A stretch of 29,469 nucleotides of DNA from Pseudobdellovibrionaceae bacterium (GTDB taxonomy: Bacteria; Bdellovibrionota; Bdellovibrionia; Bdellovibrionales; Bdellovibrionaceae), in NCBI GenBank assembly GCA_039810425.1, contig JBDHWW010000037.1, positions 1 through 29,469 of the forward strand, in the 5' to 3' direction. Below, piece by piece: positions 1,363-29,469 of this stretch (within the stretch, counting starts at the first letter, position 1; every line of letters begins with the position of its first letter). A model generated the notes under the pieces. The model saw only the letters and a list, made by a program, of their open reading frames with translations. It searched no databases and was not told where the DNA came from. Both the position numbers and the translations under genes were made by a program.

Positions 1363-1455
1363 GCCATTACAATTTACAATATGGAAGATTTTTCAAATTT
1401 CGCAAGCTGATAGGCACAGAACCACCCTTCAATCCCATTTTAAGCACTCATAGGG

Positions 1456-1471
1456 TGGCCCCCTTTTTGCA
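1456..1471 (+). promoter_or_regulatory. Putative sigma-54 (-24/-12) promoter
   Basis: TGGCCCCCTTTTTGCA = TGGC-N7-TTGCA with GG-N10-GC spacing, about 40 nt before ATG 1511. Confidence 0.65.
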
Positions 1472-1510
1472 ATTGCCCTCGTCTGAATATAACAATGTTA
1501 AGGAGAACCC

Positions 1511-2005
1511 ATGGTTAAAGCATTTCTCGCAACAGCGATTTTAATGACGAGCGTTTCTGGCTTTGCAGCCACTTCTATCAATGACTTCGTTGGCACTTAC
1601 CAACTGGCGGATCAAAAAGCCGAAGGTGATGCTTTTTGCTTTCAACAAATCACAATTAGCCGAGAAAACGATGGTACTATCGGCGTCTACCGCGAAAACA
1701 CTTCTTATGGCCCATTGATCAGCGCGGAGCTCAACGGCAGCCCACGCAAGAGCAGCGGCTCCCACGGCGAAGCCATGAGCAGCCGCAAAGGTAAAGACAC
1801 GGTCACATTAAAAAACAATATTCTGACATTTGAATATAGCGGAACAACAAGCATGCTGGGTGTTCCCGTCAGCCGCGAATCCGACACGATTTCCGCGAAA
1901 CTCGCTCAAGGTGGAAAAGCTTTGGCAGTGACTCGCACAACTTCCGAAGGCCCTATCGTCGGCTTTGGCAAAAACAGCAAAGCTCTCTGCGCCTATACAA
2001 GATAA
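1511..2005 (+). CDS. Secreted hypothetical protein, probably beta-rich, two Cys
   Basis: RBS AAGGAG; Sec signal MVKAFLATAILMTSVSGFA|A; own terminator. Confidence 0.8.
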   Translation: MVKAFLATAILMTSVSGFAATSINDFVGTYQLADQKAEGDAFCFQQITISRENDGTIGVYRENTSYGPLISAELNGSPRKSSGSHGEAMSSRKGKDTVTLKNNILTFEYSGTTSMLGVPVSRESDTISAKLAQGGKALAVTRTTSEGPIVGFGKNSKALCAYTR

Positions 2006-26098: not shown

Positions 26099-28230
<2,132 letters not shown>

Positions 28231-28247
28231 GGTTTAAGTCTTAGCAC

Positions 28248-28275
28248 AAAAAAATGCGGGGCGTAAGCCCCGCAT
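28248..28275 (-). terminator. Rho-independent terminator just upstream of queA
   Basis: Minus strand ATGCGGGGC-TTAC-GCCCCGCAT plus a T-run; perfect 9-bp stem. Confidence 0.88.
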
Positions 28276-28332
28276 GACCTTCTTTGGGGAACCACCAAAC
28301 CCAGAGAAAGTCGAAATACTTGAATTGAAAAC

Positions 28333-28485
28333 CTAGGCGCTGCGTCTCCGCTCTGTGGCCTCCAGTTCGGGCCGTATGAGGCGCCCCTGCATCCGTTGCC
28401 GGGCGACCAAATTCGCCCATATGGCGACGCTTAAGGCCCCTGAGTACACCACACAAAATAATAAGATCATTTGTCCTTCACTCAT
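28333..28485 (-). CDS. Unannotated 50-aa single-TM small protein
   Basis: MSEGQMILLFCVVYSGALSVAIWANLVARQRMQGRLIRPELEATERRRSA*; RBS GGAGG 5 nt upstream; hydrophobic ~22-mer then Arg-rich tail; own terminator. Confidence 0.6.
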   Translation of the reverse strand: MSEGQMILLFCVVYSGALSVAIWANLVARQRMQGRLIRPELEATERRRSA

Positions 28486-28776
28486 TGATTCCTCCGTGAA
28501 TCAGGGCCTATGTTGACGGTGAGGGTTTTAGCCATCCTAGCTCCCCCTTGTTCCGTCTTGAGGAGCTTCCGTGCCCCTCTGTCTTTGTGACTGATGAGGG
28601 CATTTTCTAGGTTAATTAATCCGCTCTTTTTTTAAGCAAAATTCTTTGGCACCTGGTCCAAACTTCCAAAATACCGACCAGGGTCCTGAAACTTATCAGG
28701 TTTTGGCGATTGACTCCCCCCAGCCCAATATGGTTTAAAGGGAGTCCCTCAGAATCAATACAGATTCATTTTGTGC

Positions 28777-28815
28777 GCGCGGATGGTGGAATTGGTAGAC
28801 ACGTACGTTTGAGGG
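28777..28815 (+). pseudogene. 5' half of the resident tRNA-Leu(GAG), truncated after the anticodon loop (att junction)
   Basis: GCGCGGA TG GTGGAATTGGTAGACAC G TACGT TTGAGGG, then non-tRNA AT-rich sequence; no variable arm, T arm or 3' acceptor strand. Confidence 0.9.
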
Positions 28816-28870
28816 ACTTGTTAAGTTTTTTATTTATGAAAGGAAAATTAAAGGTTTAAATTGGTATTGG

Positions 28871-28900
28871 TAGACGAAAAATCCCCCTCTTTGGTAGATT
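28871..28900 (+). promoter_or_regulatory. Putative sigma-70 promoter for the second tRNA
   Basis: TAGACG-N18-TAGATT with extended -10 TG and an AT-rich upstream tract, 21 nt before the tRNA. Confidence 0.5.
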
Positions 28901-28921
28901 GTCTACTGCTCGAAAAAAAAT

Positions 28922-29006
28922 GCGTCAGTGGCGGAATTGGTATACGCGCACGTTTGAGGGGCGTGTTCCTAACGGATTGTGGGTTCGAGTCCCACCTGAC
29001 GCACCA
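28922..29006 (+). tRNA. tRNA-Leu(GAG), complete, CCA encoded
   Basis: Acceptor GCGTCAG/CTGACGC, A73, CCA; D-loop GG; anticodon arm CACGT-TTGAGGG-GCGTG; long variable arm; GTGGG-TTCGAGT-CCCAC. Confidence 0.96.
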
Positions 29007-29399
29007 TTTATCATTTTCTTTCATTTGCACTAATACGGCGAACGGCTTTTTCAAGTTAAATTGAATATTTAGTCCATCTAAAATCGGGTTAGAAAGTAGC
29101 TTATCAAGCAGGTTTCGTCTTTCTTCGGGTGTGCTTTCTTTCCATAATGATTTAGCTGACTTGCCCAGTTCTAAAACGGATTTCGCCGTTTCCATCACGG
29201 CGGAAGTTAAGCCCTTTTGAAGCGTTTCTAATTGGTCAGTAAGGTCATCGCGGTTTGAACGAATACGCGCCAACTGCTTATCAAAATCCGTTTGCGCTAT
29301 ATGGCCCTGCAAACGCATATCAAAGAGTTTGTTCTCAAAGCCTTGCAGTTCCTGCTCCTTCGCCTTGAACTCCGCCATTTGCATTTCTGTGGCTTGCCC

Positions 29400-29469
29400 T
29401 CTAAGTCACTATGGTCGAAGCACGCACTAATCCATTGAACAACCAGCGGAGCTGTCCTTACTCGACGAA
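29400..29469 (+). mobile_element. Possible non-coding left end of an IS110-family element interrupting the recombinase
   Basis: Coding character ends near 29398-29405; CTCT at the junction, TATGGT -10-like box at 29410-29415, then GCACGCACTAATCCATTGAACAACCAGCGGAGCTGTCC, which I recall as resembling IS110 leader regions (unverified recollection). Confidence 0.4.

Follow-up and report, generated by a model that had tools for sequence, protein, structure and literature searches.

How does a bacterial chromosome come to carry a tRNA-Leu gene that breaks off in its anticodon loop and, 106 nt further on, a complete tRNA-Leu(GAG) gene of different sequence, and what became of the broken gene's function? 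The window (the whole stretch of DNA analysed, 29,469 nucleotides) is the entire contig C37 of the G000 assembly, which comprises 149 contigs, 3.54 Mb, and has a G+C content of 49%. By the names of close protein homologues and of two related records, it comes from Bdellovibrio-like bacteria (Pseudobdellovibrionaceae, Bdellovibrionales, Bdellovibrionota). Host genes (recJ, secF, secD, tgt, and queA) lie to the left of the broken tRNA gene, and the contig ends 463 nt past the complete tRNA, within a repeat. The answer that we hold to be very probable is that the host's only tRNA-Leu(GAG) gene received, in its anticodon loop, a site-specific element with a tyrosine integrase, which left the gene unrepaired and supplies a tRNA of its own. 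The features on which this reading draws are:

27211-28230, minus strand: queA, the host gene beside the tRNA locus.
28710-28739, plus strand: probable native promoter of the host tRNA-Leu(GAG), suggested by conservation (TTGACT at 28710-28715, an 18-nt gap, TTTAAA at 28734-28739).
28777-28815, plus strand: nt 1-39 (5' half) of the host's native tRNA-Leu(GAG), forming the arm of attL on the host side; recognized by identity and synteny with relatives.
28810-28815, plus strand: TTGAGG, the anticodon-loop letters that host and element have in common and the likely strand-exchange region (core in G180 and G007, junction in all six cassettes).
28816-28921, plus strand: left arm of the element (P' arm of attP), a 106-nt spacer between the junction and the replacement tRNA.
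28922-29006, plus strand: complete element-borne tRNA-Leu(GAG) with the acceptor stem GCGTCAG/CTGACGC (ARAGORN; Rfam RF00005, 52.3 bits).
29007-29392, minus strand: C-terminal 129 codons of a large serine recombinase (about 530 aa), recognized by its homologues, a remnant of a second, nested element.
29393-29469, no strand: terminal part of a multi-copy repeat, by which the serine recombinase gene is cut at 29392/29393 and with which the contig ends.

The broken host gene

The 39-nt fragment ends with TTGAGGG at the 3' edge of the anticodon loop, and the next letters (ACTTG) do not continue a tRNA. It has the 11-mer ACGTTTGAGGG in common with the intact tRNA (28805-28815 and 28950-28960), and its acceptor strand GCGCGGA is incompatible with the CTGACGC of the intact gene. 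Compared with the 5' part of intact tRNA-Leu(GAG) genes, the fragment is identical at 39 of 39 positions in G001, which argues against a chance match, and at 38 of 39 in G005; the tRNA of G015 reads as that of G001. Fragment-type intact tRNA-Leu(GAG) genes are present in five of the six same-genus relatives (G001, G003, G004, G005, and G006), and the sixth, G002, has another Leu(GAG) type. Past nt 39, the native gene continues with GCGTA... and ends with ...TCCGCGCACCA.

Searching 28231-29006 against 40 relatives and G000 itself returned alignments with G005 (87% identity), G001, and G006 that cover the intergenic region and the fragment and end at 28815 (query position 585); G002 aligned to query position 570 and G003 to 352. 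The alignments with G005, G001, G006, and G003 also span the upstream region and thus identify the same locus. Since the intact genes of relatives match the fragment and homology ends at its last base, the fragment is what remains, at the queA-adjacent locus, of the host's native tRNA-Leu(GAG), with the break at the anticodon loop's 3' edge. The initial annotation had reported a host tRNA-Leu(GAG) broken at the anticodon loop; its coordinates and letters are correct, and the queA-linked gene that it proposed to compare is intact in the relatives with a fragment-type gene. The TTGAC-N-TTTAAA arrangement upstream of the fragment also precedes the intact native tRNA of same-genus relatives, and it is probable that the native promoter was kept in front of the broken gene.

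The complete tRNA and its cassette

The stems of the intact tRNA are fully paired (acceptor 7/7, anticodon 5/5, T 5/5), and an Rfam search over 28100-29469 found nothing besides tRNA. The T stems of the window and of G180, a genome from another genus, differ by one compensatory pair (GTGGG/CCCAC versus GAGGG/CCCTC). The six cassette tRNAs described below differ in sequence and all have fully paired acceptor, anticodon, and T stems (7/7, 5/5, 5/5). Full stem pairing together with the compensatory change favours the view that the element tRNA genes are functional. The closest match among tRNAs that have no visible cassette is the Leu(GAG) tRNA of G024, a member of another genus (93%). The earlier claim that the intact gene is foreign and not a host/element chimera is borne out by the acceptor mismatch, by the pairing of the gene's own stems, and by its recurrence across genera, and the tRNA at 28922-29006 is foreign, element-borne, and non-chimeric.

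We used 28816-29006 (191 nt) as a query against 384 genomes of the order. G180, in which the host fragment is a different one, matched over all 191 nt with 91% identity, and partial matches were found in G230 (query positions 1-59 and 103-152), G312 (11-191), and G007 (52-191). An integrase search added a sixth cassette genome, G313, so that the set comprises G000, G180, G230, G312, G313, and G007. The genomes compared are mostly draft assemblies, and related genomes are not independent of each other. The plan of the cassette is a local host 5' half, followed by TTGAGG, an element spacer, and a complete tRNA-Leu(GAG) that lies 106-113 nt past TTGAGG. The host 5' halves differ between the cassette hosts, and TTGAGG stands at the junction in all six; in G000, G180, and G230, the element sequence begins with GACTTGTT. 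The exact junction is rare in the collections surveyed: a junction pattern returned two loci in the genome collection and none in metagenome contigs or viral contigs, with the first version of the pattern having a gap one base too short for G312. The spacer and tRNA together form a cassette that is mobile across genera.

Cassette spacers contain two TTGGTAGA-type motifs, the second of which lies inside a GGTAGA...CTACC palindrome. In the window, the two spacer motifs are at 28867-28874 and 28891-28898, and the second is part of the imperfect palindrome GGTAGATTGTCTAC at 28893-28906, just upstream of the tRNA. The 29.5-kb window holds three copies of TTGGTAGA, all within 28792-28898, where 0.46 are expected for the whole window; three or more copies occurred in none of 100 shuffled sequences.

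The Leu(GAG) gene is the only one among the 27 tRNAs found in the G000 assembly, which settles the earlier suggestion to look for further copies as far as the assembled tRNAs go. A tRNA-Leu(UAG) is present on contig C5, and the codons CUU and CUC together make up 39.6% of the Leu codons in 740 long ORFs. In the 384-genome search with 28816-29006, most of the matching genomes gave a single match, a figure that counts matches and not gene copies. It is plausible that the host needs the element tRNA.

The initial annotation had also given the replacement tRNA a promoter of its own. A consensus scan for promoters and terminators called none in 28500-29100, and read-through from the host promoter would explain expression equally well, so we do not retain this claim. 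The scan is insensitive at this locus, as it also missed the conserved native promoter-like site. There is a weak promoter candidate that overlaps the palindrome (TTGGTA, a spacing of 17 nt, and an A/T-rich hexamer). The predicted RNA fold of fragment plus spacer (145 nt) is unremarkable (z 0.44), with no notable structure. We infer that the replacement tRNA is expressed, whether through the weak candidate at the palindrome or through transcription running on from the host promoter, and that the host may need it.

Far junctions, integrases, and competing explanations

The displaced 3' halves of the host genes were located in three related genomes. In G180, the same contig holds the host 3' half 9.9 kb further downstream, behind ...TTTGGTAGACACATAAGTTTGAGG; in G007, the 3' half is 112 kb away, behind ...TTTGGTAGACGCATAAGTTTGAGG; and in G230, it is on a different contig (C19), preceded by the same arm as in G180. 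In all three, the partner of the 3' acceptor strand is the 5' fragment of the same genome and not the element tRNA, and the two halves in G007 match the intact tRNA of its congener G116. At neither far end, that of G180 or that of G007, did ARAGORN call a tRNA. Regular-expression and BLAST searches of the G000 contigs found neither the displaced 3' half, nor a downstream flank of the G005/G001 type, nor an attR arm of the G230 type. With 149 contigs and only 27 tRNAs, the far end of G000 may be unassembled or lost. The earlier prediction of a displaced 3' half at the far boundary therefore holds for G180, G007, and G230, and the predicted half was not found in G000.

From these junctions, attP was reconstructed as ...TTGGTAGAC-N7-TTGAGG(G)-ACTTGTTA.... 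Its left arm holds an imperfect copy of the tRNA stretch between D-loop and anticodon loop (about 23 nt), and its right arm (ACTTGTTA...) is unrelated to the tRNA 3' half. The letters that flank the loop sequence in attP form an imperfect inverted repeat resembling an anticodon stem. The idea that the replacement tRNA frees attP from likeness to the host tRNA has to be given up, as the left arm retains the copy of about 23 nt. The core that attB and attP have in common reads TTGAGG for G180 and GTTTGAGG for G007, and by analogy that of the window is probably GTTTGAGGG. The attL sites lack the 3' half, and the attR sites lack nt 1-15; for the window, this refers to attL alone. No circular attP form was seen. 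Williams reportedly described, in 2002, the anticodon loop as a sublocation of tRNA-targeting islands and prophages.

Tyrosine recombinases (PF00589; phrog_1 integrase) are encoded directly behind the element tRNA in G180 (about 356 aa) and G007 (about 362 aa). Homologues with at least 70% identity occur in six of the 384 genomes (G180, G007, G230, G014, G000, and G313), and in four of these (G180, G007, G230, and G313), the integrase adjoins the cassette, which answers in the affirmative the earlier suggestion that the cassette might stand beside homologous recombinases elsewhere. G312 had no tyrosine-integrase homologue at E<=1e-30. In G000, what is left of the integrase is residues 206-355 (the last 150), with 88.7% identity; they stand at the beginning of contig C141 (2.6 kb), where DNA homologous to the G180 element's interior is present as well. 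The N-terminal part of the integrase was not found in G000, and the 73 nt with which C141 begins, ahead of the integrase remnant, have no match to other contig ends. The responsible enzyme would thus be a tyrosine integrase, of which G000 keeps a C-terminal remnant on the separate contig C141; the link between C37 and C141 is putative.

The elements differ in size and content. In the 10-kb element of G180, the PHROGs matches are the integrase and one protein of unknown function, and only the integrase and a methylase-like protein are above threshold in PHROGs or Pfam. The 112-kb island of G007 encodes FtsK-like, DUF3854, DNA polymerase A, SSB, IS21, ClpB-like, and restriction endonuclease proteins and extra flagellar switch genes. 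The Pfam scan of G007 covered 101 of the 114 listed ORFs, the other 13 being outside the island or already scanned. Searches of the G180 element with Pfam and PHROGs, and of the 101 G007 ORFs with Pfam only, turned up no families of phage structure or lysis; many ORFs had no match at all. On this content, neither element looks like a temperate phage, though either could still be a very divergent phage or satellite.

The large serine recombinase at 29007-29392 offers another candidate: it could have broken the host gene, with the cassette belonging to a serine element. It adjoins the cassette in the window and in G312, where it stands behind the tRNA in place of a tyrosine integrase, and serine integrases get by with hardly any homology, their targets usually ending up disrupted. 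Its 129-codon piece has 20 homologues at E<=0.001, of which 15 carry both PF00239 and PF07508; they are mostly 508-556 aa long, and the best is 95% identical. A Pfam search with the piece alone, a truncated remnant, matched neither these families nor any other. The recombinase frame continues antisense through the tRNA to 28848, and all five homologues inspected end with W-C-x-x-x-D-(L/S)-N. These tails are probably the antisense of a tRNA 3' end (TGG-TGC being the reverse complement of GCACCA), which would tie the family to tRNA genes.

Against the serine recombinase as the responsible enzyme stands, first, its occurrence behind unbroken genes. A 74% identical remnant lies directly behind the tRNA-Leu(CAG) on contig C40, which is native and unbroken: synteny with G005 (90%) extends over the upstream flank and all of the tRNA, as far as the tRNA's 3' end. 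In G117, likewise, this remnant follows a Leu(GAG) gene whose upstream sequence is of native type, with neither fragment nor spacer. The cassettes of G180, G007, and G313 are accompanied by a tyrosine integrase and have no adjoining serine recombinase, and a tyrosine integrase adjoins the cassette in G230 as well. Finally, identity between the cassettes of the window and G180 is 91% as far as the CCA end, past which the two sequences are unrelated, as a later insertion behind the tRNA would predict. The remnants behind unbroken native tRNA-Leu genes point to a separate, second kind of element, which lands behind such genes and leaves them unbroken and which, in the window and in G312, came to lie behind the tRNA of the first element; we give the serine recombinase only a small chance of having opened the host gene.

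The 76-77-nt repeat that cuts the serine recombinase gene also ends C1, C5, C28, C29, and C35, with different flanks each, which makes six contig ends in G000. The 77-nt sequence is absent from 40 relatives, and no G000 contig continues it. It is perhaps an insertion sequence; a group II intron was considered and dropped, as the six flanks have no common target sequence.

An explanation that dispenses with the integrase altogether is a small insert, a short non-coding cassette that spreads as a tRNA inside a tRNA into anticodon loops, with integrases merely nearby. G134 has a 5' fragment, about 160 nt, and then a complete tRNA in which the 7:66 pair is A.C, and this could be a short, 5'-duplicating insert; for the window itself, the far end is unseen. 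The related genomes speak against a small insert, as the host 3' half is far from the 5' half in G180 and G007 (9.9 and 112 kb) and on another contig in G230, a conserved element arm precedes it in all three, and an integrase immediately adjoins the cassette tRNA in four genomes. We consider the chance of an integrase-independent insert very small.

Misassembly would be a trivial cause, with two tRNA-Leu loci joined through the 11-mer common to their anticodon loops. The assembly is of metagenome type, in 149 contigs, and C37 terminates in a repeat only 463 nt past the tRNA. A 12,820-nt contig of X1, from a separate assembly made with a second assembler, bridges 28400-29103 with zero differences; this is partial support, as run X1 is probably the source sample and the contig is not independent data. 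A 263-nt contig from an unrelated study (X3) has the identical junction up to 28821 and a different spacer, with 149 instead of 96 letters before the tRNA, and the separately assembled G180 and G230 also have the identical junction sequence. In runs X2-X4, coverage is restricted to tRNA-like pieces or to the serine recombinase region. A false join is, on these grounds, extremely unlikely.

Equally little credence attaches to a native GCGTCAG tRNA with the fragment as a decayed duplicate or the relic of an older event: elements that duplicate a 5' part would also leave a 5' fragment upstream of an intact tRNA, but GCGTCAG-type tRNAs, which the initial annotation had named as the finding that would overturn its reading if native to relatives, are present in none of the six same-genus relatives (five have the fragment-type gene), the 3' half of the intact gene is unlike the native one (76% over 78 nt versus 100% for the fragment), and spacer and tRNA move between genera.

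Mechanism and relation to known systems

The sequences show a target that is split and left unrepaired, and a whole tRNA with the same anticodon that has been carried in. On the preferred reading, insertion of a tyrosine-integrase element into a host tRNA gene, the sequence of events may be as follows. The element would insert in the anticodon loop of the single tRNA-Leu(GAG) gene, with strand exchange presumably within TTGAGG and the TTGGTAGA repeats on both arms serving as predicted protein-binding sites. Its attP would have in common with the target only the loop letters TTGAGG(G), besides the imperfect left-arm copy that runs from the D-loop to the anticodon, and none of the tRNA 3' half. 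Since attP thus offers loop letters and a 5'-side likeness and nothing of the 3' half, neither junction rebuilds a tRNA: attL retains the host promoter together with nt 1-39, and the host 3' half would end up at attR. The element's complete tRNA-Leu(GAG), which lies 106 nt inward from attL and runs in the direction of the broken gene, would make good the loss. The label "destroy and replace" from the initial annotation is right for this and is well supported by the related genomes.

In G000, the element looks decayed. A serine element has landed behind the element tRNA, the repeat cuts the recombinase of that element, and of the integrase only the remnant on C141 was found. With the element decayed, the foreign tRNA may now be a fixed replacement.

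A more tentative thought, which we regard as possible but on balance doubtful, is that integration wires the replacement tRNA to the promoter of the broken gene, which would couple expression of the spare to the integrated state and make the island hard to lose. This draws on the position of the tRNA, always 106-113 nt past the junction, on its orientation in the direction of the host gene, and on the absence of a terminator-like structure between the two; the GGTAGA palindrome ahead of the tRNA could, moreover, allow an element protein to gate it. If it were true, the host's leucine tRNA would, after decay of the integrase, be permanently replaced by a gene from another genus.

The mechanism itself is of a known kind. 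Its first description dates from 2024, from mycobacterial phages, under the name tRNA-dependent lysogeny; the actinobacteriophages concerned include Fionnbharth K4, Cluster L, and Gaia (Guerrero-Bustamante and Hatfull, mBio 2024, PMC10865867). According to the portions of that paper available, tRNA-dependent lysogeny was shown experimentally: the enzyme is a tyrosine integrase, attB lies in a tRNA gene, the core measures about 10 bp, no tRNA is rebuilt, and the phage tRNA of the same isotype is required for lysogeny. In Gaia, the target is tRNA-Leu(CAA), the core is 8 bp, and the phage tRNA is next to int. In the same portions, the authors expect to see the strategy beyond actinophages and point to the Lactobacillus johnsonii prophage Lj965.

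Measured against this part of PMC10865867, the elements described here agree in several respects. Their attB is inside a host tRNA gene; the core is short (8-17 bp in the phages versus 6-9 bp here); no functional tRNA stands at attL or attR, with the far ends here known from related genomes; the element carries a tRNA of the same type, in six of six cassettes; and the candidate enzyme is a tyrosine integrase, which adjoins the cassette in four relatives and of which G000 has the remnant on C141. They depart from what this text describes in that the hosts belong to the phylum Bdellovibrionota, no phage structural genes were found in the elements, the tRNA lies 106-113 nt inside attL and is co-oriented with the broken gene and its promoter, and attP keeps a likeness of about 23 nt to the 5' side of the tRNA.

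Phage-related sequences in Sinorhizobium meliloti that replace a host tRNA gene by a foreign one are described in the available part of PMC11476347. As here, a host tRNA is inactivated in these sequences and in Lj965 (the latter via PMC10865867), and a tRNA of the same isoacceptor type, resembling those of other taxa, is brought in; unlike here, the cases that these excerpts describe are prophage-like and belong to Alphaproteobacteria and Firmicutes. The prophages of PMC12429752 make no use of tRNA-dependent lysogeny.

Classical tRNA-targeting islands and prophages (Islander database, PMC4383910) also use a tyrosine integrase, a crossover in the anticodon loop, and stem arms as flanking repeats, and a displaced tRNA fragment marks the far end of the island, as it does here. 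The classical attP carries the 3' (rarely the 5') part of the tRNA and regenerates the gene at one junction, whereas here neither junction regenerates a tRNA and a separate whole gene is supplied. Among the matches listed in a literature search on tRNA-dependent lysogeny, no title concerned Bdellovibrio-like bacteria or non-phage islands, and the layout was not described in the titles and abstract openings of papers on integrases, tRNAs, or genomic islands in Bdellovibrio. What is distinct here is the phylum, the non-phage-like islands, the tRNA at attL, and the 5'-side likeness of attP to the tRNA.

These observations extend the integration strategy beyond phages of Actinobacteria to integrative islands of 10-112 kb in Bdellovibrio-like bacteria of at least four families of one order, the tRNA-Leu(GAG) genes of which differ everywhere except in the anticodon loop. 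They are also a warning for island mapping that expects a regenerated tRNA and one displaced fragment, as in this case the island itself contains the intact tRNA, and the target survives as two fragments. Furthermore, they show a way in which a core tRNA gene can be swapped for a foreign one, which is then fixed as the element decays; if the replacement is indeed wired to the promoter of the broken gene, this would be a route for the horizontal replacement of core tRNA genes in predatory bacteria.

Serine recombinases at the 3' ends of tRNA-Leu genes

Members of a large serine recombinase family (length approximately 530 aa) were found at the following sites:
window 29007-29392, minus strand: recombinase remnant, belonging to a second, nested element
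C40:185-507, another contig of the same genome (G000): recombinase remnant
P0001-P0020: homologous proteins

In the five homologues examined, the recombinase reading frame appears to terminate within the antisense of a tRNA 3' end, and the C-terminal tails read W-C-x-x-x-D-(L/S)-N. Recombinase remnants directly follow intact genes for tRNA-Leu(CAG) and tRNA-Leu(GAG). These observations suggest a family of elements that insert at the extreme 3' end of tRNA-Leu genes and whose recombinase C-terminus would be altered upon integration.

Interrupted genes and contig ends

Six contig ends whose flanks are unrelated share an identical repeat of 76-77 nt (start, TTGCCCTCTAAGT):
window 29393-29469
ends of G000 contigs C1, C5, C28, C29, and C35

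The repeat probably represents one end of a multi-copy insertion sequence absent from the bin, and a search of 40 relatives found no copy of the repeat. A related end (TTGCCTTGTAAGT) lies in the serine recombinase gene copy of another genome of the order, G312, with the insertion point 9 nt off. The tyrosine integrase gene on G000 contig C141 is also interrupted: the remnant starts abruptly at residue 206, just ahead of the LFGTGMRLGEA box, and the 73 nt preceding it (C141:1-73) matched no other contig end.

Variation and conservation around the split tRNA

Three further features lie near tRNA-Leu(GAG) genes:
window 28231-28640: conserved non-coding stretch from queA to the tRNA promoter
G134 C72:7003-7283 (locus L049, about 2010-2385): 5' fragment and complete tRNA-Leu(GAG)
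L047:2372-2582 (G180); L013 19065-19304, minus strand (G007); L063 about 1398-1630, reverse strand (G313): conserved small ORF

The non-coding stretch has 69-87% identity among same-genus relatives, and a short section of it (28248-28303) recurs beside the split tRNA in G007, where queA is elsewhere. It had no Rfam hit at E<=0.01 and could represent a leader or small RNA that has not been described.

At the G134 locus, a tRNA-Leu(GAG) 5' fragment is followed by about 160 nt with GGTAGAT motifs and a complete tRNA-Leu(GAG), whose acceptor pair 7:66 is A.C; G7 of the fragment would pair. The arrangement may reflect an insert that duplicates the 5' half instead of importing a complete gene. The locus has a distant tyrosine integrase (29% identity) 2 kb downstream.

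The small ORF (approximately 75-80 aa, N-terminus M-x-x-V-x-x-I-D-E-(L/I)-K) has the element tRNA on one side and the integrase on the other, overlapping the integrase start in a different frame. The G007 copy has no Pfam match, and the product of the ORF may act in excision or regulation.

Cargo of the G007 island

The split tRNA bounds one large island:
G007 C1:424350-536520: island of 112 kb

It encodes three FliG-like proteins and one FliM-like protein, all extra, together with a ClpB-like ATPase, a DisA-type diadenylate cyclase domain protein, two Mrr-type endonucleases, and one IS21 pair, a cargo that is unusual for an island.
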